A stretch of DNA of 59,809 nucleotides, taken from contig CAZDLE010000002.1 in NCBI GenBank assembly GCA_964506035.1, forward strand, positions 1 to 59,809, read 5' to 3'. The position numbers and the translations under genes were made by a program. This document shows positions 34,078 to 52,797 of this stretch, piece after piece; position 1 is the first letter of the stretch; each line of letters begins with the position of its first letter. The notes under the pieces are model-generated. The model ran no database searches, was not told where the DNA came from, and worked only from the letters and a program-made list of their open reading frames with translations. The stretch is from an uncultured Oscillospiraceae bacterium (GTDB lineage: Bacteria > Bacillota > Clostridia > Christensenellales > CAG-314).

Positions 34078-35301
34078 ATGAAAAATGTTATCGTAGGACA
34101 ATCAGGCGGACCAACCGCTGTTATCAACGCAAGCTTGCTTGGTGTCTACAAACAAGCGGTACAGCTTGGCGCAAACAACGTGTACGGCATGCTCTACGGC
34201 ATACAAGGTTTGTTGGAAAACAAAATAGTAAACCTTGGCGATAGTCTTGCAACGGAGCATAATCAACAACTACTTCGTCGCACGCCGTCGGCATTTTTGG
34301 GCTCCTGCAGATACAAGCTTCCCGAACCTGCTTTGGGTAACGAAGTGTATCAAAAGATTTTTGCAATCTTGCAACAATTGGATATTTTTGCATTTTTCTA
34401 CGTCGGTGGAAACGACTCCATGGATACAATCAAAAAACTTTCCGCCTATGCGCAAATGGTGGGTAGCGACGTTCGTTTTGTGGGCGTTCCCAAAACTATC
34501 GACAACGACCTTGCCATAACCGACCATACCCCCGGCTACGGTTCCGCTTGCAAATATATTGCAACCACCTTGAAGGAACTTGTTCGCGACGGACTTGTGT
34601 ACGAAAACGCCGTGATATCCGTTGTGGAAATCATGGGTCGTGATGCCGGCTGGCTAACTGCTGCCGCAAGCCTTGTCAAGGGGGACGATTGCGAAGGTGT
34701 CGAAATGATTTTACTGCCGGAAACGGCTGTGGATATCAACCACTTTTTACAACGTGTTGGCAAAATTGTTGCGCAAAACCGCTCGGCAGTTATCGCCGTG
34801 TCGGAAGGCGTAAAGGTTGCCGATGGACGGTATGTTTGTCAGCTTGCCGACGAAGGCACTCAAAAGGATCCCTTTGGGCACGTCCGTCTTGCCGGAACGT
34901 CTCGCTACCTTGCCGATTTGATTGCAAAAACGTACGGATGTCGCACAAAAAGTATGGAACTGTCCTTTATGCAACGTGCAGCAAGCCACTGTCAATCGCT
35001 AACCGACGTGATGGAATCGCAACGCCTTGGCGAGGGTGCAGTGCAGTTTGCTTTCGACGGTAAAACGGGCATCGTTACAACACTCGTGCGCACAAGCAAC
35101 GCTCCCTATCACTGCGAAGTGCATTTTGCCGATGTCAACAAAATTGCAAACGCCGTCAAAAAAATCCCGACCGAGTGGATCGATGCGGAAAACTACACCG
35201 TCAAGCAACCGCTTGTAGACTATATTTGTCCCCTTGTGGAAGGCTATCTCGAACCCATCTGGCACAACGGACTTGCCCAGCACCTAATTTTGAAAAAGTA
35301 A
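34078..35301 (+). CDS. pfp: Phosphofructokinase family protein, probably the PPi-dependent type
   Basis: GQSGGPTAVINAS, GGNDSMDT (not GGDGS), PKTIDNDL and MGRDAGWL. 407 aa. Confidence 0.8.
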   Translation: MKNVIVGQSGGPTAVINASLLGVYKQAVQLGANNVYGMLYGIQGLLENKIVNLGDSLATEHNQQLLRRTPSAFLGSCRYKLPEPALGNEVYQKIFAILQQLDIFAFFYVGGNDSMDTIKKLSAYAQMVGSDVRFVGVPKTIDNDLAITDHTPGYGSACKYIATTLKELVRDGLVYENAVISVVEIMGRDAGWLTAAASLVKGDDCEGVEMILLPETAVDINHFLQRVGKIVAQNRSAVIAVSEGVKVADGRYVCQLADEGTQKDPFGHVRLAGTSRYLADLIAKTYGCRTKSMELSFMQRAASHCQSLTDVMESQRLGEGAVQFAFDGKTGIVTTLVRTSNAPYHCEVHFADVNKIANAVKKIPTEWIDAENYTVKQPLVDYICPLVEGYLEPIWHNGLAQHLILKK

Positions 35302-35805: not shown

Positions 35806-35834
35806 TTGACATTTTTATTTTTTAATGTTATAAT
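35806..35834 (+). promoter_or_regulatory. Sigma-70/SigA-type promoter of the first island gene
   Basis: TTGACA (35806-35811), 17-nt spacer, TGtTATAAT (35826-35834). GGAGG lies 7 nt before ATG 35865. Confidence 0.7.
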
Positions 35835-35864: not shown

Positions 35865-37214
35865 ATGATAAATTTTGGACACGAAACAGAAGAATTAGAG
35901 TTTAAGAAAACAACGGGCGAGCTGCACGATGCAATGAAAGATATTGTGGCGATATTAAATAAACACGAAAACGGCGTTTTGTATTTTGGTATTGCTCCTA
36001 ATGGCGATGTTAAAGGATTGCAGGTTTCAGAATCAACTTTAAGAGATGTTTCTCGAACAATTTTCGAAAGCATTAAGCCGCAATTATATCCGCAAGTACA
36101 AAAAGTTACCATAGACGGTTGTGATATTATTGAAGTGAAATTTAGTGGAAAATATAAGCCCTATTCTGCTTATGGCAAATATTATATCCGAGTTGCTGAT
36201 GAAAGTCGTGAACTAACCCCTGCAGAATTGAAAGAAATGATGTTAATTAATGAATATTCTGAACATTGGGAGCAGCACGCAACATCCTTTTCAATAAATG
36301 ACGTAGATGAAAAAGCACTTAAAGACTTCTACTCTCGCGCTACTGCCTGTGGACGACTTCCCGACGATGGATACGATGCCGAAAAACTGCTTAATAAGCT
36401 TGGGGTGTTGAAAGACGGACAACTTAATAACGCAGGTTATGTTTTATTTGGAAATAATGGTCCTGTAACGTTAAAGATGGCACTATTCGCAACGGACGAA
36501 AAATTAACGTTTTTAGATATAAATAGAACGGAAAACAACATTTATAATCTTGTTGATGAAGCGCTTACATATATTAAGAAAAATATTCGTTGGCGCGCGG
36601 AAATTGGAAATGTTACAAGAGAGGAAATTCCCGAAATACCGTTGAAAGCTCTCCGTGAAATTGTAGTAAATAGTTTTGCTCACGCTCAATACGGAACGTC
36701 TACCCAACACGAAATAGACGTGCATCCGGGAAAAGTTGTTATATATAATCCGGGAGAATTTCCACCTGAGTTTTCCCCTGAGGATTTTGCTAACAAGAAT
36801 CTTTCGTCTATAATACGAAATGAATTAATTGCGAAAGTGTTATATTTATGCCACGATATAGAGTCTTTTGCAAGTGGATTTAAGAGAGTTTATACACTTT
36901 GCAAAGAAAACGACGTTAGTTGTTCCTATGAAAAAACGCCTATAGGTTTTTCATTTATATTTTTAAGAAATGACCCTAATGCGATAATTAATGTCCCTAA
37001 ACGAGAATATAATGTCCCTATAATCCTTTCAAAAACCGAAAAGTTAGTTTACGAAATATTAAAAGAACAACCTTCATTAACAAGAGAAGAGCTTGCAATT
37101 GAAATATCTAAGACAACAAAAACAGTACAACGTGCGCTTGACTCATTAAAAACAAAAGGATTAATTATTCGGGTAGGAACAAATCGTAAAGGTTATTGGA
37201 AAACAACAGATTAA
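35865..37214 (+). CDS. AlbA_2 (Schlafen-like) / HATPase_c_4 / C-terminal winged-HTH protein (putative regulator or sensor)
   Basis: N-terminal ETEELEFKKTTGEL...NGVLYFGIAPNGDVKGLQ (AlbA_2 pattern), LREIVVNSFAHAQY...VVIYNPGEFP (RecG-C-like HATPase_c_4), and a C-terminal LVYEILKEQPSLTREELAIEISKTTKTVQRALDSLKTKGLI wHTH. Confidence 0.85.
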   Translation: MINFGHETEELEFKKTTGELHDAMKDIVAILNKHENGVLYFGIAPNGDVKGLQVSESTLRDVSRTIFESIKPQLYPQVQKVTIDGCDIIEVKFSGKYKPYSAYGKYYIRVADESRELTPAELKEMMLINEYSEHWEQHATSFSINDVDEKALKDFYSRATACGRLPDDGYDAEKLLNKLGVLKDGQLNNAGYVLFGNNGPVTLKMALFATDEKLTFLDINRTENNIYNLVDEALTYIKKNIRWRAEIGNVTREEIPEIPLKALREIVVNSFAHAQYGTSTQHEIDVHPGKVVIYNPGEFPPEFSPEDFANKNLSSIIRNELIAKVLYLCHDIESFASGFKRVYTLCKENDVSCSYEKTPIGFSFIFLRNDPNAIINVPKREYNVPIILSKTEKLVYEILKEQPSLTREELAIEISKTTKTVQRALDSLKTKGLIIRVGTNRKGYWKTTD

Positions 37215-37220
37215 TTTTAT

Positions 37221-37258
37221 AAATATGACGGAGGCTGTCATATTTAGTGTGTTATAAT
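37221..37258 (+). promoter_or_regulatory. Palindrome AAATATGAC-N7-GTCATATTT abutting an extended -10 (TGtTATAAT)
   Basis: Hairpin/operator-like inverted repeat at 37221-37245. TGtTATAAT is at 37250-37258. It lies in the 72-nt gap between the wHTH gene and the 899-aa gene. Confidence 0.5.
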
Positions 37259-37286
37259 TGCTTGAATTATACTAACGAGGTGTCGT

Positions 37287-39986
37287 ATGGAAGAACTTAA
37301 GAATAAAATTCTACAAGCAATGCAATCTGATTTCATTGGTGACGTGCAATTCGATGAAGACGAAATCGCCCAAATGAAGGAAGACTGTAAGGAATTTTAT
37401 CGTGCAGCTCAAAATACTTGGAGTAAATATTATAAAAGAGAAGATATTTGCGAATTAATTGTTTTAATAGTGAATATTGCAAAGTCTTGGAACGATGAAA
37501 GCGAAGGTCGTTTTTGGACTAAACTTTTTGGCGAAATATTTGAGGACTCATCTATCTCACCTATTAAGTTTTATAATGATTTTGAGAACTGTTTAAATGC
37601 TTATAATAAAACTTTATTTCGCTCTAAAGAAAACAAAAGGATGTTTAGAGAAGTTTTCTTATTGCACGCATTTGCGCCTGAAAAATCGGGAGAATCGTTT
37701 ATTCGATTATTGTGGAATTGGTATAGCGATATCGATGTTATAAACTTTGACCACCAACATAATGATGCTTTATATACGCAACTCGCATCATTCTTAAACA
37801 AAGAATTTGGTGGAAAAACTGATTTAGATGAAGACGTAGACTTTGAAGGTAAAATCTATTCAATAAAATCTTCCTTCAAATATTTATTCGCCCAAAACAA
37901 AGAAGCTGGAATCGTATTATTAGATTCTTTATTCTCAAACTTTGACGACATCTATTTTAACGGCAAGTACAATAAAGATTCTTTTTATGCCGAAAGATGT
38001 TCTGCTATCGTTGAAAAAATTCTACAAGAAAGTAATATCAAAACTGAACGCCGTAAAAGACACCATACGGAGCATATTGTTAGTGATTATAGCAAAATAT
38101 ATGCAGGATATGAAATAGACGAGCAAGGTGTAGCAAGCTTGTTTATCCCTGAAATTCATGCGATAGATGAAGAAGCTGAAGATTATTCGTTAGAAGTTCT
38201 TAATAATGAAGAAGTAGTTTATTCCGATGAAGGCTATATTGTAGGGAGTAATATTAAACGGAAAATTAAAAGGATTTCGATACCTTTCTCTTCTTTCATT
38301 AACAAACTTGAAGACAAAATTGATATAGTGATAAAATTATCCGTAATAAGAGACGGCGATGAAGTAGAAATCTTCAACTCGAAAAAGTCTTTATTTCGTG
38401 ACTTTATTTTATTCAAAGGTAATAGAGAAACTCGTTTGGATAATTGCAAGCCTAATGTTTCTTATTATTTAGTTCACACACCGAGCCTTAATATAAGCAA
38501 GTTTACAAATTGCGCTGTTAAGGATATTAATGCCTATACAAGTACGATATTTACCGAAGAAAACGATTATATATCAACGAGCAATCAACAAGTTTTCTTC
38601 AACATTGTACCAAAAGACTCTCACGTAATTTTAGACGGAAGACGATACGAAAACACTATATACCAAAAAGATGGTGTAGAATATCCCTTCTTTAAGTCGG
38701 TTAAAACCATAAGCGTTATTATTCCAAAAACTACAAATGCAAACAACATCACCTTAACTGTGGACGATGAAAAACACTATCCCTTATCTGCTTGTGCTGT
38801 TGCTAACGATAATACTTTTATTATTGATACCGCTAAAATTAACACCGATGGTAGCGGTGCGCATAAAATTTTATTTTCTGATGTGCGTCAAAAGAAATTG
38901 CTCCATACTGTTTTATATTACATTACACGTGATGTAGGTGTGCACGTTACGGGAAGCAATTATCTTTTCGGTGCGAAAACAGTTAATGCTTTCTTGCAAG
39001 CCCATAACGGTGGTGAGTCCGCAACTTTATATTCCATTAATCCCCGCGTTGGCAGTGAAAAGGTTGAATTTGATTATGACGAAGGAACTATAATAATAGA
39101 CCTACCATATGTAAAATGGCGCATTGATGACGGCGAATGGAATTATTCCGAATTAGACAAAAAGATTTGGCACAAAGAACCGTTTTTACATAGCAACTGC
39201 ATTGTGGAGATTGAAAACAATTCTCAACTTACAACGGAATTATTTATAAACGACCAAAGAATCGAATTATCTAAAAGCGGTAAGTATTTGCTTGGCGATG
39301 CTTTAACTGAAGCAAACGCTAATAGAGAAAATGCGATATATTTATCTATAAATGGATTCAATCATCTCTTATTTGAAGTTCTGAATAAAGAAGAACTGTC
39401 GGATTTTGATATTGATATCGAAGAAAAGACTGTAGATTTCTCTCGTGGATTTATTGGCGATGACGATGCAAGATTTTTAATGCGTTTAACTAATGAAAAC
39501 AATGAATACGAACTTGAAACTTATATTACAGACACCTTTGAAGAAGACATAATAGATGGCGAATATGACGTTGAAATTTATCTCGTAGATTTCTTTGACA
39601 ATAAAACACTTTTACTTGACGGCTGTTTTGTTATAGGTAATCCCGACAAGTTTTGTTTTGATGATTGTAGAATTGTATTAACCAAATTTAATAGACCTAA
39701 CGCAGGTAAGGTCAAATTCCAAAATTCTTATATTGCTGACTTAAAATACTTGAGAGAAGAAACAATTGGTAGCGTATATTCGGGTGTTTTAATTGATAAA
39801 AGAATGAAATATGACGTGGAAGTATATAAAAAGGACGAACGCTCGTTAAAATTCTACTTCGTTAAAGGTGAAGACTTATTACCTATAGGCTTTGATTTAA
39901 CGAAAAATGCTTTCACTCAATCAACTATTGATGATAAGAATATAATTTCTTGTACGTCTTGCTACTATGATGTTGAGGAGATTTAA
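37287..39986 (+). CDS. Large hypothetical protein (899 aa), partner of the DUF1998 helicase; possible DruH analogue
   Basis: Long uninterrupted ORF with RBS gaggtg. Its stop is 2 nt before the helicase start. I recognise no catalytic or binding motif. The first ~270 aa look helical and the rest looks beta-rich. Confidence 0.85.
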   Translation: MEELKNKILQAMQSDFIGDVQFDEDEIAQMKEDCKEFYRAAQNTWSKYYKREDICELIVLIVNIAKSWNDESEGRFWTKLFGEIFEDSSISPIKFYNDFENCLNAYNKTLFRSKENKRMFREVFLLHAFAPEKSGESFIRLLWNWYSDIDVINFDHQHNDALYTQLASFLNKEFGGKTDLDEDVDFEGKIYSIKSSFKYLFAQNKEAGIVLLDSLFSNFDDIYFNGKYNKDSFYAERCSAIVEKILQESNIKTERRKRHHTEHIVSDYSKIYAGYEIDEQGVASLFIPEIHAIDEEAEDYSLEVLNNEEVVYSDEGYIVGSNIKRKIKRISIPFSSFINKLEDKIDIVIKLSVIRDGDEVEIFNSKKSLFRDFILFKGNRETRLDNCKPNVSYYLVHTPSLNISKFTNCAVKDINAYTSTIFTEENDYISTSNQQVFFNIVPKDSHVILDGRRYENTIYQKDGVEYPFFKSVKTISVIIPKTTNANNITLTVDDEKHYPLSACAVANDNTFIIDTAKINTDGSGAHKILFSDVRQKKLLHTVLYYITRDVGVHVTGSNYLFGAKTVNAFLQAHNGGESATLYSINPRVGSEKVEFDYDEGTIIIDLPYVKWRIDDGEWNYSELDKKIWHKEPFLHSNCIVEIENNSQLTTELFINDQRIELSKSGKYLLGDALTEANANRENAIYLSINGFNHLLFEVLNKEELSDFDIDIEEKTVDFSRGFIGDDDARFLMRLTNENNEYELETYITDTFEEDIIDGEYDVEIYLVDFFDNKTLLLDGCFVIGNPDKFCFDDCRIVLTKFNRPNAGKVKFQNSYIADLKYLREETIGSVYSGVLIDKRMKYDVEVYKKDERSLKFYFVKGEDLLPIGFDLTKNAFTQSTIDDKNIISCTSCYYDVEEI

Positions 39987-39988
39987 AA

Positions 39989-42900
39989 ATGTTTAATCCG
40001 GCTGATGCTTCAAATAGAATAAAAGAAGAATTTATTGATTATATCTCTACGTCGTTTTCTGTTGCCGACCAAGAATACGATAAATTATTCAAGGAAAAAT
40101 TAAACCAACACGGTGTAATTTCAAAGGGGCCCCTTGTTGATATAAAGGATATTTTTAGAAGTGGAAAAACTTTGGCTAACTTGTGCTCCGATAACGTTTT
40201 GTCTCCACTCTTTCACAAAATAGAAAAAAACAAGCCTATCGGGGATAAATATAAACATAAATTTCCTGTTAATAGACCGCTGTATTTGCATCAAGAAAAG
40301 GCAGTAAACGTAATTACTACAAACAAGAAAAATGCAGTAGTTACAACCGGTACAGGTTCGGGTAAAACGGAATGTTTCTTAATCCCTGTTATTAATGAAT
40401 TATTAAGGGAAATAGAATCCGGAACATTAAAACCCGGCGTTAGAGCGTTATTAATCTATCCGATGAACGCGCTTGCAAACGACCAAATGAAGAGACTAAG
40501 GGAATTACTTATGTATTATCCCCAAATTACTTTTGGCGTATATAATGGTGATACTGAAAAAACCGAAGAAAAGGCTATTGCAAAATATCAAGATTTGCAT
40601 TCATTGGAAGCGTGTGATGAACTTAAACAGCCGTTAGAAAATGAGTACATTTCAAGAGAAAAAATGAATGAAACGCCACCGCATATTTTATGTACTAACT
40701 ACGCTATGTTGGAACATATGATGTTACGCCCTGAAAACGACAAAATTTTCGCTAATTCAGATTTTAAATTTGTCGTTCTTGACGAAGCGCATATTTATAC
40801 AGGTGCTACGGGAATGGAAACGGCTTTGCTTTTGCGTAGATTAAAAGCAAGGATTAAAACTAGTACTAAAACCCAATTTATTTTAACTAGTGCAACACTT
40901 GGGGAAGAAGGAAAATCCGAGAAGGAAATTATCAACTTTGCTGAAAATTTGTGTGGCGAAACTTTTGACGAAACAAGTATTATATACGGCAAAAGAGAAA
41001 CGCTCGTTTTTGATGGTGAGATTAATAATTATCCTATTGAGTTGTTTGAAGATTTAGCGACTGCAAATACAGACAAGTATGCAGAAGTTTTCACTCGTTT
41101 TGGTATCCCTTATGATTCTACCATCCCTTTTGCTCATAATCTTTATAACTTGTGTCGAAATAGCATTTATTACAAAAGAATACGTGAAGAATTAAGACCG
41201 CCTGTTGATATTGATTTATTAGCAAACGTATTAAATGCAAACAAAAATCAAGCCATTTCGTTTATCCACGTCTGCACGTTAGCGGAGAAAAATGGTAAAT
41301 CTTTAATTGATGCAAAATATCATTTTTTTCTTAGAGCATTAGAAGGTTTATACACTACATTATTTGGCAATAAGCAATTGTTTTTAGAAAGAAGAAATAC
41401 GGCAACTTTCGATAATAAACAGATTGCTTGTTTTGAACGCGCTGTTTGTAGAAACTGTGGCGAACTCGGTATTGTAGGAAAAACAGAAAAGCAAGGAAAA
41501 TTAGATAAATTAGTCCTTGCAACTCAATATGATGAAGAGACTAGATTTTTTCATATCAAATCTACTACCGAAGATGAATTTGAAGAGTTTGATTTTGAAG
41601 GTAACGAAGAAATCGAAGATGAAGAAGTCGTAAAAGTAAAAGAAAAAAGTTATAAAGAATATTACTTGTGCCCCGTTTGTGGCGCAATTACCGAAAAGGA
41701 CGATGGTAAGCCAAGATGTGATTGCGGAGTTTTACCAATAATTGTATCTGAGTACGTTAACTCTGATGCAAAATGTCCTAAGTGTCAAGGTGGAAAATAT
41801 AGAAGATTTTACATAGGCGCAGAAGCAGCTACCGGGGTTCTTGCTACTACATTATTTGAAGAATTACCATCAAAAACCATTAAAGATTATGGTGAAGACG
41901 GAGTTGAATTAGAGTTCGAAGGCGGAAAGCAGTTTTTAGCCTTTTCCGACAGCAGAAGCGAGGCAGCTTTCTTTGCTTCGTATTTGGATAAATCATACAA
42001 AGAATTCTTGCGTAGACGTGGTCTTGTTCAAGTTCTTCAAGATATAAAAGGCGATTTGTTAGACGAACCGATGAACTTATCGGAATTAGCTGACGAATTA
42101 ACAAAATTGTTTGCAAGCAAAGAAACATTTAAGGAAGAACTAACAGCGGTTCTTACTCGTAGAGAGTTAAAACGTATTTCGTTAAAGAATGCTTGGATGG
42201 CTATCCTTACGGAACTTGTATATGCAAGAAGACGTACTAGTCTTGTTTCTTTGGGTAGAATTAAATTTGAATACATAGGAAACAACGAGAAAATCGTAAC
42301 GGCATTAAGTAAAAAATACAACTTGGACGCAAAAATTTGCAAAGAGACATTGGATTATCTTGCTCTTACATTTGCTTATTTCGGAGCCTTGCAAATTGAT
42401 GACGATATAATTGATGCTGATGAACGAAAATATATTTTCTACACCGACAAGCAAAAAGCAGTAATATTGCAAAAAACGGCATCTACGGATAGATACGTTA
42501 TGAGTTGGAAAGCGCGTAATCGTGAAGGAAAAGTAGATACTTATTATCCTAATAGTCGTGTGCGCTTAATCGCAAGCATTTTAAAGTCGGACGAAAAACG
42601 AGCAAATGAATTTTTGGAAGATTATTTTAATAAATGGTTAATTAAGCCTGAAAATAAATATCACTTGGTTCGTGGCAACGGGAATATCTACTATATGCCT
42701 ATTGAAAATTATCAGGTCCGCGTATATGGAGATGAATCGGCGCATTGGTATAAATGTGATAAATGTGGCAAGGTTTCCGTTTACAATATAAACAATAAGT
42801 GTTTAGAAAATGGTTGTGGCGGTAATTTGTTTGAAATACCCCCTGAAAAGTTGTTTGAAAACAACCACTATTTAAGGTTGTATCAAAAGAAAGATTTAAC

Positions 42901-45148
42901 AGCATTATTGATAAAAGAACATACGGCACAATTATCAAGAGAAGAAGGATTAAAATTCCAAACACAATTTGAGAAGAACCATATCCACGCATTGTCCTGC
43001 TCAACTACATTTGAAATGGGTGTAGACGTTGGTGAGTTGGAAACTGTTTTCTTAAGAAACGTTCCACCTACGGCTGCAAACTACGCTCAACGTGCAGGTC
43101 GTGCAGGTAGAAGTAAAAACTCGGCAGCGTATTCGCTCACTTATGCGAAATTAAGTTCCCACGACTTTACGTACTTTAATGAGCCTACAAAAATTATTGT
43201 AGGCGAAGTTAAACCGCCTGTTTTCAAAATAGACAATCGAAAAATAGTTTTGCGACATATCTATGCCGTTGTTTTAAGCTACTTCTTTAAGAGAAACCCT
43301 GAAATCTTTAACAAAAACAAGGCAGAAGCGTTTTTAGATAATGGTGGCTATGAATTATTATTAGACCTAATAAAAGTCTCTTCTCCTGAGAGAGATTCAC
43401 TATATGATTTGTTGTCAAAATCAATTCCAAATGTATCTTCTTATAATTGGGAAGAAGAATTTGTCGGAGACAACGGTATCCTTAAATGTGTTATTGAAGA
43501 ATATAAAGAAAATGTAAAAGAAATACAAGCGATTATCGATATTTGTTATGAAGAACGAAATGCAGATAAAGCCAAGCGTGCGGAACGTTCACTTGCAAAG
43601 TATAAAGCTAAAGAACTTATTGATTTCTTTGTCCGCAACAATATTTTACCTAAATATGGTTTCCCTATCGACACGGTAGAATTAGACGTTACAACGGATG
43701 AACATCAAAGACAAGAATTGCAATTGTCAAGAGATTTGAAAATGGCGATTTCTGAATATGCTCCGGGTGAAAAGGTTATTGCAAACAATAAAATGTATAC
43801 AAGTAGATACATTAAAAAGTCTTTCTTTAACAACAGAATGGACTATCACACTTCTTATGTTTGTCAATGCGATAACTGTCAAACTTGGAATTATAGCATT
43901 AACGACCCAAGAGAATCCGATGAACTTGTAAAATGTGTTGCTTGTCATAAACCTATCACCAAAGGGAAATGGGATGACGCAATCGAACCAAGAGCAGGAT
44001 TTATTGCTGAACATAGAGCTGAAGAGGTTCCTATGTCTCGTCCGGATAAAATTTACCATAGTCAAGATTCTTATATTGGCAACGGTAAAAAGATGGACGA
44101 ATTTTTGTTCTCTATAAACGATAGAGATATAATTTTAAAGTCTAGTGAAAACGACTCAATTATGGTTACTTCCCACACCAAGTTTTACGTTTGTAAAAAA
44201 TGTGGGTATACGTATGGTTTCCACGATATAATTAGAGATGAATCGGGCAAAAAAGATAAAGATGCTATCAATGCTATCACGAAACGTTCTCCATACATTA
44301 TTGTAAAACGCAAACATAAAAATGTACACGACCATTACTGTAACAATACTTATTTTTACCCGTTTGTTTTAAATCACACCTATAAAACGGACGTTGTTTT
44401 AATGGATTTCCAAGAATACAACGGCGAAGAAAAAACAATGTTGTCTATTCTATATGCATTGCTGAATGCTATGTCCGATGTGTTAGGTATAGATAGAAAC
44501 GATATTGGCGGAAGTTTAAAAGCCACTTTTGATAGAGATGTTGGTGATATTAGATATTCGCTTGTCTTATATGATACAGTTGCAGGTGGTGCAGGTCACG
44601 TACGTAGATTGTTAAATTCTACTGTTTTGAGCCAAGTGTTTAATAATGCACACAACGCAATGAAACATTGCCTTTGCGATACTTCTTGTTATAACTGTTT
44701 AAGAAGTTATTCAAATCAAAGAGTTCACGAAAAACTCGATAGACATTTAGCAGAAGAATTTTTATCTTCCTATTTAGGTGAAGCTACAGAACTAGTTATC
44801 CGTCAAAACCAAGAAGTTAAAGAATTAAAATTATTATCGGACGGGTTAAATATAAAAACTGAAGATTACGATTATATTTTCTCTCTGCTTGACGATGACT
44901 CTGAAGTTACACAAAGACTAAGTGAATTATTTATAAATCAATCTTTGCCTAAGTCTGATTTTAACGATATAGGATTCAAAATAGATGATGAAACAGGCTA
45001 TGCTAATTTATTGTGGAAAGACAAAAAAGTAATGTTGTTTACTAAAGACAACGAAAATGGTTACGTTTTAGCTAAAAATAGTAATTATCGTTGTTTTATA
45101 TTGGATGAAACTTTTAACTTAACGTTGTTTTTAAAAGCGTTAGACTAA
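39989..45148 (+). CDS. DEAD/DEAH-box SF2 helicase with multiple zinc ribbons and a C-terminal DUF1998 (MrfA-type Zn-binding) domain; DruE/DrmAB-like
   Basis: LYLHQ, TGTGSGKTECFLIP (motif I), YPMNALANDQ, VLDEAHIY (II), TSATL (III), FEMGVDVG...QRAGRAGRS (V/VI). CxxC pairs are CRNCGELG, CPVCG...CDCG, CPKCQGG, CDKCG...NGCGG, CDNC...CVAC and CKKCG. The terminal module is YDTVAGGAGH...CLCDTSCYNCLRSYSNQRVHEKLDR. Confidence 0.9.
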   Translation: MFNPADASNRIKEEFIDYISTSFSVADQEYDKLFKEKLNQHGVISKGPLVDIKDIFRSGKTLANLCSDNVLSPLFHKIEKNKPIGDKYKHKFPVNRPLYLHQEKAVNVITTNKKNAVVTTGTGSGKTECFLIPVINELLREIESGTLKPGVRALLIYPMNALANDQMKRLRELLMYYPQITFGVYNGDTEKTEEKAIAKYQDLHSLEACDELKQPLENEYISREKMNETPPHILCTNYAMLEHMMLRPENDKIFANSDFKFVVLDEAHIYTGATGMETALLLRRLKARIKTSTKTQFILTSATLGEEGKSEKEIINFAENLCGETFDETSIIYGKRETLVFDGEINNYPIELFEDLATANTDKYAEVFTRFGIPYDSTIPFAHNLYNLCRNSIYYKRIREELRPPVDIDLLANVLNANKNQAISFIHVCTLAEKNGKSLIDAKYHFFLRALEGLYTTLFGNKQLFLERRNTATFDNKQIACFERAVCRNCGELGIVGKTEKQGKLDKLVLATQYDEETRFFHIKSTTEDEFEEFDFEGNEEIEDEEVVKVKEKSYKEYYLCPVCGAITEKDDGKPRCDCGVLPIIVSEYVNSDAKCPKCQGGKYRRFYIGAEAATGVLATTLFEELPSKTIKDYGEDGVELEFEGGKQFLAFSDSRSEAAFFASYLDKSYKEFLRRRGLVQVLQDIKGDLLDEPMNLSELADELTKLFASKETFKEELTAVLTRRELKRISLKNAWMAILTELVYARRRTSLVSLGRIKFEYIGNNEKIVTALSKKYNLDAKICKETLDYLALTFAYFGALQIDDDIIDADERKYIFYTDKQKAVILQKTASTDRYVMSWKARNREGKVDTYYPNSRVRLIASILKSDEKRANEFLEDYFNKWLIKPENKYHLVRGNGNIYYMPIENYQVRVYGDESAHWYKCDKCGKVSVYNINNKCLENGCGGNLFEIPPEKLFENNHYLRLYQKKDLTALLIKEHTAQLSREEGLKFQTQFEKNHIHALSCSTTFEMGVDVGELETVFLRNVPPTAANYAQRAGRAGRSKNSAAYSLTYAKLSSHDFTYFNEPTKIIVGEVKPPVFKIDNRKIVLRHIYAVVLSYFFKRNPEIFNKNKAEAFLDNGGYELLLDLIKVSSPERDSLYDLLSKSIPNVSSYNWEEEFVGDNGILKCVIEEYKENVKEIQAIIDICYEERNADKAKRAERSLAKYKAKELIDFFVRNNILPKYGFPIDTVELDVTTDEHQRQELQLSRDLKMAISEYAPGEKVIANNKMYTSRYIKKSFFNNRMDYHTSYVCQCDNCQTWNYSINDPRESDELVKCVACHKPITKGKWDDAIEPRAGFIAEHRAEEVPMSRPDKIYHSQDSYIGNGKKMDEFLFSINDRDIILKSSENDSIMVTSHTKFYVCKKCGYTYGFHDIIRDESGKKDKDAINAITKRSPYIIVKRKHKNVHDHYCNNTYFYPFVLNHTYKTDVVLMDFQEYNGEEKTMLSILYALLNAMSDVLGIDRNDIGGSLKATFDRDVGDIRYSLVLYDTVAGGAGHVRRLLNSTVLSQVFNNAHNAMKHCLCDTSCYNCLRSYSNQRVHEKLDRHLAEEFLSSYLGEATELVIRQNQEVKELKLLSDGLNIKTEDYDYIFSLLDDDSEVTQRLSELFINQSLPKSDFNDIGFKIDDETGYANLLWKDKKVMLFTKDNENGYVLAKNSNYRCFILDETFNLTLFLKALD

Positions 45149-45161
45149 AGGAGATACGTTT

Positions 45162-46871
45162 ATGGCGATTATGATACCAAGCATACCGCAAGATTTCTCA
45201 CCCGAAAGTCGTGAAGGTGAAATGTTTTTAAGTTTGCAAAAATTACCTGATGATTATTACGTTTTTCACTCATTCCGTATTATCAAACTTGAAGATAATA
45301 CTTGGAAAGAAAATGAGATTGACTTCGTAATCTTTAATAAAGACAAGGGCTTGCTTTGTTTAGAAGCAAAGGCAGGCGACGTTTATTGTGAACGCGGTAT
45401 ATGGCATTATGGCTCGGGAAAGGAAATGCGTGATCCGTTTGCCCAAGCAAATTCTAACAGATGGAAGTTATCCCAATACATGGAAGAGTTTTATCAAACC
45501 CAAGAAATTAAGCGTCATTGTAAAATTTTAAGTGGCGTTTGGTTTCCGGGGATAGACAATAATAAACTTTCAAGATTGGCTCTTCCTTCTAACGCTATAA
45601 AAGAAGCCGTTTTAACGAGTGACGATTTAGATAATCCTTTAGATGCAATCGAAAGAATCTTTTCTATTCAAGTTCCCGTTAAAGTTTATGGTGAAACTTC
45701 TTTAGTAGAAACATCTTTAACAAGAAGTGAAGTAGAATCGCTTTTGCAAAATGTTTTATGCCCAACTTTTAATATTTTACCTTCAAAAACTTTAGAATTA
45801 GATTATAAAAGAGAAAAATTCAATGCACTTATAACAGAACAATGTAATCTCTTAAATTATCTTGAAGAGCAAAGAAGCGCAGTAATAAATGGTGCTGCGG
45901 GTACGGGCAAAACTATGATTGCCGTTGAAAAGGCAAGAAGACACGCAAACAAGGGCGAAAAAGTATTGTTTCTCTGCTTTAATATAAAATTGAAAGAGTA
46001 TTTAGAAAAAACTTATGCTTACGAGAATGTTGATTACTATACAATTGATAAATTTGCTTGTAAACTATGTCATTCTATCGAACCAAACTATGATGATTTG
46101 GAAAACAAATTAATTTGTTTGGCTGTTGACGGCGGTTTTCCTTATTTACATATCATAATAGATGAGGGACAAGATTTTGGTCAAACAAGAATGAAAAGTG
46201 AAGAAATTTTCTCTACTTTAGAAGAAATAGTTTTGTCTACCAAGACAGGGACTTTTTATGTATTCTACGACAAATTGCAGTTAGTTCAAAGTTTCAATGT
46301 GCCAAAGTTTATCGAAAATGCAGATTGTAGATTGACTTTATATAAAAACTGTAGAAACACAAAGAAGATTGCAGAAACGTCCTTTAAGCCGATAGGGAAA
46401 ATTCCAAAACTTTTTGATTTCGCTATACCTGGTGTTCTCCCCGAAATCTCTTTTGTTTCGGAAGAAGATATTAAAGAGCGCATTGACTTAACTATAAAAC
46501 AAGCAAATGCTAACGGCATTAAAGACATTCAAATTTTAAGTTGTGTCCCTAGTGGCGAAAGTATGTTAGAGAGTTATCTTGAAAATGATTTCTATAACTA
46601 TAAAGGACAAAAAATACCATTCACTACTTGTAGAAAATTTAAAGGATTAGAGGCAGATAAGATAATTCTTGTGGATGTTAATAAAAACTCAATTATGGAC
46701 AACAATAAGTTATTCTACGTTGGTTCATCAAGAGCAAGGTTTGAGTTAAGTATTTTGGCAACTCTTTCTGATAGCGATTGTGTTGAAATCTTACAAAGCC
46801 TTAACTCTATCGTCAAGAAAAACAATCCACAATTAACGCTTTCAAAAGTGTTGGGCTGCAAATTAATTTAA
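45162..46871 (+). CDS. NERD-domain nuclease fused to an SF1 (UvrD/AAA_19-like) helicase
   Basis: N-terminal NERD pattern GEMFLSLQKLPDDYYVFHSF...EIDFVIFNKDKGLLCLEAKAG. Also Walker A NGAAGTGKTMIAV, Walker B IIIDEGQDF, YKNCRNTKKI, KGLEADKIILVD and FYVGSSRARFEL. RBS aaggag, 13 nt after the helicase stop. Confidence 0.88.
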   Translation: MAIMIPSIPQDFSPESREGEMFLSLQKLPDDYYVFHSFRIIKLEDNTWKENEIDFVIFNKDKGLLCLEAKAGDVYCERGIWHYGSGKEMRDPFAQANSNRWKLSQYMEEFYQTQEIKRHCKILSGVWFPGIDNNKLSRLALPSNAIKEAVLTSDDLDNPLDAIERIFSIQVPVKVYGETSLVETSLTRSEVESLLQNVLCPTFNILPSKTLELDYKREKFNALITEQCNLLNYLEEQRSAVINGAAGTGKTMIAVEKARRHANKGEKVLFLCFNIKLKEYLEKTYAYENVDYYTIDKFACKLCHSIEPNYDDLENKLICLAVDGGFPYLHIIIDEGQDFGQTRMKSEEIFSTLEEIVLSTKTGTFYVFYDKLQLVQSFNVPKFIENADCRLTLYKNCRNTKKIAETSFKPIGKIPKLFDFAIPGVLPEISFVSEEDIKERIDLTIKQANANGIKDIQILSCVPSGESMLESYLENDFYNYKGQKIPFTTCRKFKGLEADKIILVDVNKNSIMDNNKLFYVGSSRARFELSILATLSDSDCVEILQSLNSIVKKNNPQLTLSKVLGCKLI

Positions 46872-46883
46872 TTTTTTCAAAAG

Positions 46884-46919
46884 ATAGGCAGATGTCCAAG
46901 AACGTGGACATTTGCCTAT
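46884..46919 (+). terminator. 15-bp-stem hairpin after the cassette
   Basis: ataggcagatgtcca-agaacg-tggacatttgcctat starts 13 nt after the stop. The downstream T-run is weak. Confidence 0.55.
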
Positions 46920-47527
46920 TGACTTTTATAGATTCTTATGATAAAATAGAATTACGAACACGAGCATATGTTTGAAATATATTTTGTGGGTGTATATATA
47001 ATTAAGGGGTATTCCCCTTGATTTAACTTGCTTGGGGCAGCAGGCTTTGTAAGTGTACGTTTTCGTGCGCTTGTGGGGGATTTTCTCCCGTTTACCCGAA
47101 GCCGTTTTACATAAAGGGAAACAAAACGGTTTTTTTAGGGCTTGATTGTCGTACAATTTTTTACGACAATGTGCCGTCCTTTCGCTTTTATCGAGTGAAA
47201 GGCTTGGAAAGACTGACCAACTTTTCAAGTAGGCGCGCCAACGTTCAAAAAACGGGGGTTGGCGATAGGTCTATTTTGTGGTACAAATTTTTATGTACTA
47301 CACTCTTACAACTTCATATTCGGATATTAAATCCGTGCGAGGTAGAAACGCTATAAGCGTGTTTTAATTCGTACGGATTTTTTGTCCCTTTAGGTCGGTG
47401 GTATTTTTATCAGCGACTTTTTTGCGCCCAAAAATCAAATTTAGTAGGAAATCAAAATGAAAAATTATCATCATTATTACCCGCCGTGAATGTTAAGCAA
47501 ACGGCAAGCAAAACTTTAAGAAAATCA

Positions 47528-47617: not shown

Positions 47618-48642
47618 ATATCATATTTAGTATGCCATATGGAGAAATACCATAAACAAGAAGTTTCGCCCGTTGAAGAAGAAAATGAACGTGACGAAAC
47701 CTTTGAAGCGGACAATCCGCAAATAGATAGCGAGCGAACAAAAGCCAATTATCATATGAGCTTTAACACTCTTACTTACACCGAGTTTATCAATAAACGA
47801 TTCAACGAATTGGGCTTACGTCCACGTAAGGATGCCGTTGTTATGAACTCTTTCGTGGTAGGCTCGGACAAAGCATTTTTCGACGGCTTATCTAAAATTC
47901 AACGATACAGTTTCTTTTCGGACTGCACCAAATTTTTTGAAGAGAGATACGGAGAAGAAAATATAATGTCGGCGGTAGTTCATTTAGATGAAACGACTTC
48001 TCATATGCACTTAAATCTTATCCCCATCACTCCCGACGGAAGATTGTGTAGCAAGGACTTGTTTGATAAGCCCAAACTACAACAACTGAAAACCGACTTT
48101 TACGAAGCCGTTGGAAAGAAATATGGTTTGCAACGTGGTAAGGAAGGAAGTCAAGCAAAACACCTATCCACCGCCGAATACAAAGCCAAGAAGATTATAG
48201 AAGAAGCAGAAGAAATTCGACGTGAAAACCAAGTGTATGCCGATGCTTTGGAAGAAGCCAAAAACGGAGAGATACCTAAAAAGCGTGGCAAGTTGCAAGA
48301 ACAAGTGGTAGCGTTAACGGTAGAAAATAAAAGTTTAACTGAGCGTCTTGACCGTTCTATGCAAGATACGCTTGATATGGTTAAGGAAAACAAGAAGATT
48401 AAAGCAGAACAGTCGAAAGACGTTAAATACGCCCAAGTCGGTAGATACATAGCAAGTAATGCACCGAATTTATGTAGAAATATCTTAAACGGCGCAAGTC
48501 TACAAAGGTGTTCTTCTCTGCTGTGGAAGATTTATGTAAACCGAGTGTAACGGCTCAAGTTCCCCGACTTCAACAAATAGAAGCGGAGATTGAAGAAGAA
48601 CGTGTAAAACACGAAAGTAAAAACAAAAATTATAAATTTTAA
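47618..48642 (+). pseudogene. mob: MobV-family (Mob/Pre) relaxase, apparently decayed
   Basis: It has the Mob_Pre motif VHLDETTSHMHLNLIP. The conserved N-terminus ISYLVCHMEKY begins with ATA (47618) 10 nt after GGAGG instead of ATG. The C-terminal ~50 aa (KVFFSAVEDLCKPSVTAQVPRLQQIEAEIEEERVKHESKNKNYKF) continue in another frame after about 48478. Confidence 0.7.
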
Positions 48643-48993: not shown

Positions 48994-50908
<1,915 letters not shown>

Positions 50909-52320: not shown

Positions 52321-52797
52321 CTACTTTTTGTCCGTCGAGCCAAGTCCACCGACGCGCTCTGTGGTAACGTCGTCGTCTTCCGTCAAAAGATAGTGGGTAA
52401 AAATGCCTTGCGCAAACGCCGTTCCCTGTGCAACGTGCAACGTTTTTTGTCCTTCGTTGGTCAGTTTTACAAAAATGTGACCTTCGTTTGGCGCGTCGCT
52501 GTAGTCTGCGTCGATAATCCCCACGGTATTATCCAGTCGCAGGCGGTACTTAAACCCCAAGCCGCTGCGTGGAAAAATCATCAAACACCAGTCGTCGGGC
52601 ATAAGTGCGCGCACGCCCGTTGCAACGGTGATTGTTTGGTTGGGTTCAAGGTCGATATCTGTCGGCGCAAAAAAATCGTAGCCGGCACTTTTGATTGTGG
52701 CACGTTTTGGCAACAATATATTGTTGTAGGTTTGTTGCGATCCGCTTTGCAAAAAGGTTTCAAGCGACACTTTTTCGAATTTTGCTTTTGTTCTCAT
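52321..52797 (-). CDS. dut: dUTP diphosphatase
   Basis: SAGYDFFAP, FPRSGLG and VGIIDADY motifs, 158 aa. Confidence 0.9.
   Translation of the reverse strand: MRTKAKFEKVSLETFLQSGSQQTYNNILLPKRATIKSAGYDFFAPTDIDLEPNQTITVATGVRALMPDDWCLMIFPRSGLGFKYRLRLDNTVGIIDADYSDAPNEGHIFVKLTNEGQKTLHVAQGTAFAQGIFTHYLLTEDDDVTTERVGGLGSTDKK

Follow-up and report, generated by a model that had tools for sequence, protein, structure and literature searches.

What does a large protein without recognisable domains do when it is encoded immediately upstream of a DruE-like helicase? The question is raised by a stretch of 59,809 nucleotides (nt) from an uncultured Oscillospiraceae bacterium (GenBank assembly GCA_964506035.1, contig CAZDLE010000002.1, positions 1 to 59,809 of the forward strand), hereafter called the window, in which positions 37287 to 39986 encode a protein of 899 amino acids (aa) that is named X in this analysis. 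The comparisons set out below argue that X is probably an accessory subunit equivalent to DruH in a compact anti-phage system of Druantia-like type, not classified before, which comprises X, a DruE helicase without a PLD domain, and a helicase of superfamily 1 (SF1) carrying a NERD nuclease domain. It is best described as a new type of accessory gene of the Druantia kind, and not as a categorically new system. The features on which this argument turns are as follows.

37287 to 39986, plus strand: gene X, ATG start, 899 aa, 104 kDa, pI 4.8
37277 to 37282, plus strand: ribosome-binding site GAGGTG of gene X, read directly, 4 nt 5' of the ATG at 37287
39975 to 39980, plus strand: ribosome-binding site GAGGAG of the helicase gene, read directly, identical with codons E897-E898 of X
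39989 to 45148, plus strand: DruE-like helicase of the YprA/MrfA family and superfamily 2 (SF2), 1719 aa, from PADLOC, Pfam and PDB matches
45162 to 46871, plus strand: NERD (PD-(D/E)xK) nuclease joined to an SF1 UvrD-like helicase, 569 aa, third gene of the cassette, from Pfam and PADLOC matches

An earlier note on this DNA, made from the sequence alone, had described a long, clean open reading frame with its own ribosome-binding site, which ends 2 nt before the helicase ATG and holds the helicase ribosome-binding site in its last codons, and the positions agree with it throughout, as the TAA stop of X occupies 39984-39986 and the helicase ATG begins at 39989. The C-terminal 'EE' of X is kept in the family consensus, and since the same codons double as the helicase ribosome-binding site, this tail may be maintained by the need for that site rather than by protein function. 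Lying in DNA with a guanine-cytosine (GC) content of 33% and having 49 close clusters and 393 representatives at 50% clustering, X is no chance reading frame. Neither the whole protein nor its N-terminal domain and beta part, scanned separately, had a match in Pfam, NCBIfam or PADLOC up to E=10, apart from a 16-bit match of residues 1-43 to Phage_sheath_1C, the sole library match, which was discarded as chance. The family profile gave 0 matches at E<=10 among PDB sequences, a set that includes the DruH entry 9TUD, and regular-expression scans of X found no P-loop, PLD HxK..D or HNH-like motif. The absence of a recognisable domain, P-loop or nuclease motif, claimed earlier, thus survives both kinds of scan, and no housekeeping family emerged from Pfam, NCBIfam or the PDB sequences. 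X shows no signal peptide or hydrophobic N-terminus (MEELKNKILQAMQSDF...), and is a cytosolic, acidic protein.

By its homologues, X is a member of a real, previously unannotated protein family. A word-indexed search returned the 49 close clusters, of ~895-926 aa and down to 35% identity, the only name among which is 'hypothetical protein [Clostridia bacterium]' and none of which has a Pfam domain. The exhaustive profile search returned the 393 representatives (229 at E<=1e-30), and a profile search of genome contigs with the close-family alignment (A1) gave 4 loci. The closest genomes are metagenome-assembled genomes of gut Clostridia (Candidatus Scatosoma, 96%; Christensenellaceae, 99%, partial; uncultured Clostridiales), and the metagenomic loci come mostly from human gut samples. 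No relatives were found in 50,697 phage records, 72,556 plasmid records or IMG/VR; a 1069-aa relative is carried by a Clostridium butyricum megaplasmid (L006; hhalign 99.5% against the family). Some members are joined to further domains, namely a UvrD-like helicase in the same protein (P0125, P0165), or three RNA_pol_A_CTD domains (HhH, DNA-binding) N-terminal to X (P0131; L017 432-5021). One C-terminal HhH repeat resembling the RNA polymerase alpha-CTD was seen in P0064, and P0092 and about 20 more members have an uncharacterised N-terminal extension of ~450 aa. Across 152 diverse members, the conserved residues of the N-terminal domain are K7, E26, K66, W68, H127, P131 and D160, of which K7, E26, K66, H127 and D160 are present in at least 82%. 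The beta region contains the conserved motif S365-x3-L-x-R371-x4-F376-x4-E381. Residues 51-200 and the 365-381 motif are the best-conserved stretches, and residues 401-600 the least conserved.

The genomic context ties this family to its helicase. We collected 27 informative loci, the window locus being included in the counts, and in 26 of them a DruE-like helicase lies directly downstream of X, at X identities from 96% to ~21%. The junctions range from an 8-nt overlap to a 12-nt gap everywhere except in L003 (46 nt). The arrangements are as follows.

15 loci, including the remote L019 and L022 (~21-23% identity): X, DruE-like helicase, NERD + SF1 helicase
3 loci (L006 on the C. butyricum megaplasmid, L014, L021): X and DruE only
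5 loci (L017, L018, L020, L028, L033): X and DruE, then the contig end
1 locus (L016): X fused to a UvrD-like helicase, DruE as two genes, NERD-helicase
2 loci (L035, L038): internally deleted remnants with the gene order kept
1 locus (L032): orphan X without DruE

The flanks differ between loci and include housekeeping genes, type I and HpaII restriction-modification (R-M) systems, DUF4062, and AAA_14/DUF4143, of which the type I R-M, HpaII R-M and DUF4062 neighbours are defence-island contexts. Because the flanking genes vary by locus, the conserved unit is X-DruE, usually together with the NERD-helicase, which co-diverges with the cassette (49-65% identity where DruE has 52-69%). The earlier proposal that X is a motif-less partner of the DUF1998 helicase is borne out by the 26 adjacent loci, the varied flanks and the tight junctions, and the opposite finding, that homologues of X never stand beside such a helicase, was not made. 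That note had overlooked the conserved unit of three genes, which includes the NERD-SF1 helicase gene at 45162-46871. Between loci, X accumulates changes at about twice the rate of its DruE, the identities of DruE and X being 52 versus 35, 58 versus 42, 44 versus 23, 42 versus 23 and 40 versus 21%.

Four of the loci are unusual. L035 (10001-16268) has X residues 1-480 joined to the N-terminus of DruE and DruE residue 1242 joined to the NERD-helicase from residue 196, and L038 (1137-3095) has X residues 1-134 joined to DruE 1428-1705, so that the cassette is evidently decaying in some gut lineages. L016 (2046-13625), beside an HpaII R-M system, encodes a 1606-aa X with a C-terminal UvrD-like helicase, and its DruE equivalent consists of a 1062-aa protein with weak DEAD and Helicase_C signals and a 612-aa MZB protein, a split reminiscent of DrmA/DrmB of DISARM; the NERD-helicase follows. 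Right after the X stop of L032, a small two-gene module stands on the opposite strand in two diverged copies arranged in tandem; its insertion could have taken the place of DruE and the NERD-helicase.

The 1719-aa helicase of the window carries the Pfam domains DEAD, Helicase_C and MZB/DUF1998 (MZB at 1489-1571), a DEAH box at 265 and multiple CxxC zinc motifs, and thus has the make-up of the Druantia signature protein DruE, a large SF2 helicase with DEAD/DEAH, Helicase_C and MZB. It matches the PADLOC models DruE1 (8e-183) and DruE3 (7.5e-176), as well as the solved Escherichia coli DruE (PDB 9tu7, 4e-86). In the X-associated DruEs tested, the order of PADLOC models was DruE1 (about 550-610 bits), slightly above DruE3, then DruE2 and DruE4. 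Since these bit scores lie far under the level of true subtypes, the X-associated DruEs are suggested to form a separate clade, on the basis of model scores and with no DruE tree built. The tandem C-terminal PLD-like nuclease domains of type III-A DruE have no counterpart in the window DruE, in which no PLD domain was found, the MZB domain being followed by only ~148 aa and the C-terminal 160 aa being without a Pfam match at E<=10. A Vsr-like endonuclease fold is reported for type I/II DruE. DruE residues 1573-1719 (44705-45148), which include '...YANLLWKDKKVMLFTKDNE...', might form a degenerate version of it, to judge from DUF559/Vsr-like motifs. The third gene product combines Pfam NERD (3.4e-10) with UvrD_C_2, and matches PADLOC RTasNERD-Hel over its full length (3e-53) and Nhi (7e-8). 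Its D54...E68-x-K70, Walker A GAAGTGKT (244) and DEGQD (334) motifs are kept in 9 orthologues, and it is likely to be the nuclease effector of the cassette.

Structure prediction divides X into two parts:

37287 to 38036, plus strand: predicted N-terminal all-alpha domain, aa 1-250, from AlphaFold2 and the conservation profile
38100 to 39983, plus strand: predicted array of ~6-7 beta-sandwich (Ig/Fn3-like) modules, aa ~272-899, from DSSP of the AlphaFold2 model

The full model, computed from a 33-sequence alignment, has a mean predicted local distance difference test score (pLDDT) of 89.4 and a predicted template-modelling score (pTM) of 0.56; the N-terminal domain modelled alone reaches pLDDT 90.1 and pTM 0.89. 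Residues 2-249 are modelled as helical with one beta hairpin, and beta-rich modules extend from there to the C-terminus, with strands running through residue 898 and no helix beyond 675. Foldseek found no structural neighbour of the N-terminal domain in the PDB (best E 0.18, template-modelling (TM) score 0.12). That best match, SAMHD1, was rejected, as the histidines of 'FDHQHND', a possible HD motif, are unconserved. The full model matched only generic Ig/Fn3 arrays (TM ~0.1) in the PDB and BFVD, among them the OSM receptor (cytokine receptors), complement C3, RPTP and phage tail proteins; the DruH entry 9TUD was absent from the Foldseek matches listed. Comparison of the family profile with itself revealed no significant internal repeat in the beta region (best off-diagonal P 0.13). 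The alpha-helical N-terminus and beta-rich remainder anticipated by the earlier note are therefore recovered, its 'repeated' segments hold only as structural modules and not as sequence repeats, and the structure search that it had advised, now run, yields an alpha head and a beta array with no specific fold match.

It is this architecture, together with the position of the gene, that recalls DruH, the accessory protein of Druantia type III. By cryo-electron microscopy, DruH is a protein of ~1100 aa with an N-terminal alpha domain, an Ig/Fn3-like array, and a C-terminal helical domain packed against the N-domain (2026 preprints 10.64898/2026.05.12.722862, 10.64898/2026.05.13.724758 and 10.64898/2026.05.13.724313, and PMC13192584). 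According to the same preprints, the C-terminal domain forms a pocket with Ig5 that binds single-stranded DNA (ssDNA) and ATP; and DruH, whose gene immediately precedes druE, is the faster-evolving of the two proteins, its Ig-like domains being under positive selection. In E. coli and Pseudomonas aeruginosa, DruH and DruE are both needed for defence, and DruE alone is non-toxic. The order of alpha head and Ig/Fn3-like array in the X model equals that described for DruH. Like Druantia type III, and especially the PLD-less III-B, the cassette of the window has a DruE-like YprA/MrfA helicase with MZB/DUF1998 (Doron 2018; Bell et al. 2025, PMC12458937). It further shares with type III one large (~100 kDa), acidic, domainless accessory protein that is encoded immediately upstream and co-translated, that consists of an N-terminal alpha domain and about six Ig/Fn3-like domains, and that evolves faster than the helicase. 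The faster divergence of X and its variable residues 401-600 parallel the fast evolution reported for the Ig-like domains of DruH. The window DruE is without the tandem PLD nuclease, and in this it resembles type III-B, described by Bell et al. 2025 (PMC12458937) as having 'most frequently no nuclease domain'.

On this analogy, we infer that X would serve as a sensor or scaffold; it may be expressed stoichiometrically with its helicase, as the earlier note took the coupling of the two genes to suggest. X would recognise an infection cue, namely a phage protein and/or exposed ssDNA or forked DNA, through its variable beta-array and conserved head, and would then engage, recruit or license the 3'-5' DruE helicase. 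The NERD domain (D54/E68/K70), moved by its own SF1 motor, would degrade the unwound phage DNA in trans; since the window DruE is without the type III-A C-terminal PLD nuclease, the NERD nuclease is the most likely agent of this step.

A number of observations weigh against a DruH-equivalent role for X. The reference DruH (E. coli ATCC 8739, WP_012304922.1, 1119 aa; L009, 26023-35696) matches 10 PADLOC DruH models, and its homologues carry precomputed PF27205 and PF27201; in the same locus, RefSeq labels DruH a 'STY4851/ECs_5259 family protein' and DruE a 'DEAD/DEAH box helicase'. X has 0 matches to PADLOC DruH models (E<=10) and 0 to NCBIfam (E<=1), and 49 of its 49 close homologues have no precomputed Pfam entry, and hence neither PF27205 nor PF27201; the Pfam set that we scanned ourselves lacks these two entries, and its null result alone says nothing on DruH membership. 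A comparison of X with DruH from a single sequence gave nothing significant, and reciprocal hidden Markov model (HMM) searches between the two give negative bit scores. Alignment by hhalign of a 32-sequence X and a 28-sequence DruH alignment gives a probability of 1.2% (E 0.044), and that of a 152-sequence X and a 41-sequence DruH alignment 0.4-2%. X is without the C-terminal alpha-helical domain, measuring 899 aa against the 1119 aa of E. coli DruH. Under the weak N-domain alignment described below, DruH R35 and E75 (E. coli numbering) are unconserved in X, the E75 position being K66; by position only, and unaligned, these residues are assumed to correspond to Arg22 and Glu64, which are essential for defence in DruH of P. 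aeruginosa. The orphan X of L032 (3849-5420, 43% identity) has no DruE after it. The three two-gene loci imply that the NERD-helicase is not obligatory, and as it resembles stand-alone Nhi and DRT-associated proteins, it could act independently. Finally, the roles published for DruH disagree, having been given as ssDNA binder, exonuclease, sensor and scaffold in five 2026 studies, and in view of this conflict the DruH analogy fixes no single mechanism.

Some of the same comparisons bear on the alternative that survives best and partly overlaps with our preferred reading, namely that X is an extremely diverged true member of the DruH/YjiT family with the same biochemistry, which binds ssDNA ends or trims them 3'-5' and loads DruE, the cassette being a deep-branching type III with an added helicase-nuclease. 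We consider this tenable, although somewhat short of probable. Like DruH, X precedes druE in the same orientation, is of similar size and charge, and has its alpha head ahead of the Ig-like array. In three alignments, hhalign recurrently pairs X ~21-137 with DruH ~30-140 (P 0.011-0.044); with the N-domain alone, P is 0.011-0.022 and the probability 2-4%. None of 40 block-shuffled controls reaches the N-domain score of 24.4 (their mean is 15.6, sd 1.8 and max 19.9), and the reversed controls stay at 13.6 and 14.0. The family-invariant landmarks under this weak alignment are collinear, with E26 of X facing E40 of DruH, W68 facing W76, W77 facing W88 and P131 facing P139. Against this stand the hhalign probability of only 1-4%, the negative cross-HMM scores, the absence of any signal in hhalign of the X beta region against DruH, the missing C-terminal helical domain and the unconserved R35 and E75. 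In a positive control, moreover, the same DruH profile finds the 995-aa DruH that is encoded upstream of DruE in Chryseobacterium (Bacteroidota) at 3e-30 and 99.5%; the profile is thus sensitive enough for a diverged DruH, yet X fails to match it. The weak collinear signal makes shared ancestry of the N-domains possible, though unproven, and we hold such ancestry to be slightly less probable than its contrary. At the sequence level, X is not recognisably a DruH. The profile-profile comparison with DruH, a check proposed by the earlier note, therefore failed to place X in that family and left a weak similarity of the N-domain.

The converse alternative, that X is an independent, non-DruH solution, in which a multi-Ig 'receptor' with a new alpha head recognises phage proteins or DNA ends and passes the signal to a two-motor machine of the SF2 DruE and the SF1 NERD-nuclease helicase, appears rather unlikely to us, though it deserves consideration.

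Less probable still is that X is itself an enzyme, acting as a DNA-end-processing nuclease or other catalytic effector through a presumed cluster of conserved polar residues in its novel alpha head. The N-domain is among the two best-conserved parts of the protein, with K7, E26, K66, H127 and D160 widely retained. For DruH, one group reports a 3'-5' exonuclease activity in the N-terminal alpha domain and another a dimer-dependent nicking activity, whereas other groups find no catalytic domain (2026 preprints). Since the two-gene variants (L006, L014 and L021) encode no PLD or NERD nuclease, some nuclease activity may there have to sit in X or DruE. However, Pfam and PADLOC reveal no nuclease motif or fold in X, nor does the Foldseek search of the N-domain (best E 0.18).

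It is improbable that X is a negative regulator or safety catch of the antitoxin kind, with DruE and the NERD-helicase auto-inhibited until a phage factor titrates X. Tight translational coupling upstream of an effector is typical of inhibitor-effector pairs, DruH leaves DruE upon infection in E. coli pull-downs (2026 preprints), and in the deleted cassettes L035 and L038 every loss from X is accompanied by a loss from DruE. Yet a pure inhibitor fits poorly with the joint requirement for DruH and DruE and the harmlessness of DruE alone, and an orphan X exists (L032), whereas lethality of an orphan effector cannot be inferred from the data. That X is unrelated to the helicase, a surface, adhesin-like Ig-repeat or phage tail-like protein and chance neighbour in the island, is effectively refuted by synteny, because its best Foldseek matches, although extracellular Ig/Fn3 arrays and phage tail proteins, reach only TM ~0.1 and reflect generic beta-sandwich repeats, X has neither a signal peptide nor relatives in phage, plasmid or IMG/VR records, and DruE is adjacent in 26 of 27 loci over >75% sequence divergence with overlapping stop and start codons.

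The preferred reading, a DruH-equivalent subunit in a Druantia-like cassette, must also be set against the defence systems already described. None of the four genes of the island matches, in PADLOC, the defined Druantia accessory sets (DruABCD of type I; DruM, DruF and DruG of type II; DruH of type III). From type III, the cassette differs in that X is unmatched by DruH models (the PADLOC DruH3 set, NCBIfam STY4851/ECs_5259, PF27205/PF27201), is ~220 aa shorter and lacks the C-terminal domain bearing the ssDNA/ATP pocket; a NERD + SF1 helicase belongs to the conserved unit in most loci; and DruE scores about equally with the DruE1 and DruE3 models, at ~600 bits only. ARMADA type II shows the same pairing as DruE and the NERD-helicase, with the YprA-like helicase ArmC followed by ArmD, a UvrD-like SF1 helicase with an N-terminal nuclease-type domain (Bell et al. 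2025). However, the N-terminus of ArmD is RelE-like (+ GajB-like) and not NERD, ArmC carries an active Vsr-type nuclease, and ARMADA needs the BrxHII/RapA-like ArmA and the PglX-like methyltransferase ArmB and has no X/DruH-like protein, while the cassette at 35.8-46.9 kb contains no methyltransferase or Snf2/RapA helicase. TALON, like the cassette, unites a YprA-family helicase with a NERD-type PD-(D/E)xK nuclease, but its gene set extends to TPR-CSD and TBP proteins, and it is for the most part restricted to Chloroflexota (Bell et al. 2025). Neither TPR-CSD nor TBP genes occur in the window cassette or in homologous loci; here NERD is fused to an SF1 helicase, and the YprA-family helicase is DruE-like, not ARMADA-like. 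The Nhi and DRT-associated NERD-helicases, known or predicted to be anti-phage, share with the third gene an N-terminal nuclease and an SF1 helicase, but the latter is neither stand-alone nor associated with a reverse transcriptase, being conserved behind X-DruE. In the literature searched, neither the cassette nor the pairing of DruE with NERD was found; Bell et al. 2025 (PMC12458937) connect NERD with TALON alone, and for type III-B neither DruH nor NERD is named in their supplement.

The surroundings of the three genes in the window point to a single transcription unit on a mobile island. The relevant features are as follows.

35865 to 37214, plus strand: Schlafen-like gene, 449 aa, with SLFN_AlbA_2, HATPase_c_4 and a winged HTH, from Pfam
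37220 to 37246, plus strand: hairpin with 12 base pairs (bp), between the Schlafen-like gene and X, followed by TGTTATAAT (37250-37258)
46883 to 46920, plus strand: hairpin resembling an intrinsic terminator, 16-bp stem and T-rich tail, at the 3' end of the putative three-gene operon
47639 to 48550, plus strand: Mob_Pre relaxase, from Pfam
49253 to 50908, plus strand: large serine recombinase with DUF4368, from Pfam

Judging from this layout, X, DruE and the NERD-helicase are probably transcribed as one operon at 37.2-46.9 kb. The hairpin at 37220-37246 and TGTTATAAT are possible regulatory elements of the cassette, the former a terminator or operator and the latter a -10 element. The Schlafen-like gene has a weak PADLOC similarity to Argonaute-associated proteins (Aga_SIR2-PNTD 1.9e-10, pAgo 4.7e-7), lies within the same low-GC island, and may have a regulatory role or be a defence gene in its own right. 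It was considered as a fourth component and rejected, since elsewhere it recurs beside X only in L013, from the same species, which places it outside the core cassette. A perfect sigma-70 consensus promoter, TTGACA-17-TATAAT with TG, lies 5' of it at 35806-35834. The block at 36-52 kb has a GC content of 33-37%, compared with 42-46% in the backbone, and sits between pfk (34078-35301) and a dUTPase gene (52321-52797, minus strand). As this block ends in the Mob_Pre relaxase and the serine recombinase, the cassette looks like the cargo of an integrative mobilisable element of a gut Clostridia bacterium, inserted between pfk and the dUTPase gene. Serine recombinases also flank homologous cassettes in L001, L030 and L036.

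For the biology of Druantia, the X family would represent a second partner of DruE, in which the alpha head and the Ig-like array are kept and the C-terminal domain is dropped, while the nuclease would have shifted from DruE to a separate NERD-helicase. Because X keeps the blueprint without the C-terminal domain and with the nuclease relocated, these cassettes would offer a natural comparative test of which features of DruH are essential for licensing DruE. As the family, with ~390 clusters mostly from gut metagenomes, is unannotated in Pfam, NCBIfam and PADLOC v2, its cassettes would be missed or mis-scored as 'DruE only' in censuses of human gut defence. Their carriage on elements with serine recombinases and Mob_Pre relaxases suggests that they are probably exchanged horizontally among Clostridia. 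If the independent solution were true, the cassette would be a Druantia type of its own, a three-component helicase-helicase-nuclease system common among Clostridia of the human gut and overlooked by present defence-finder tools, and DruE helicases would have acquired Ig-array sensors more than once.

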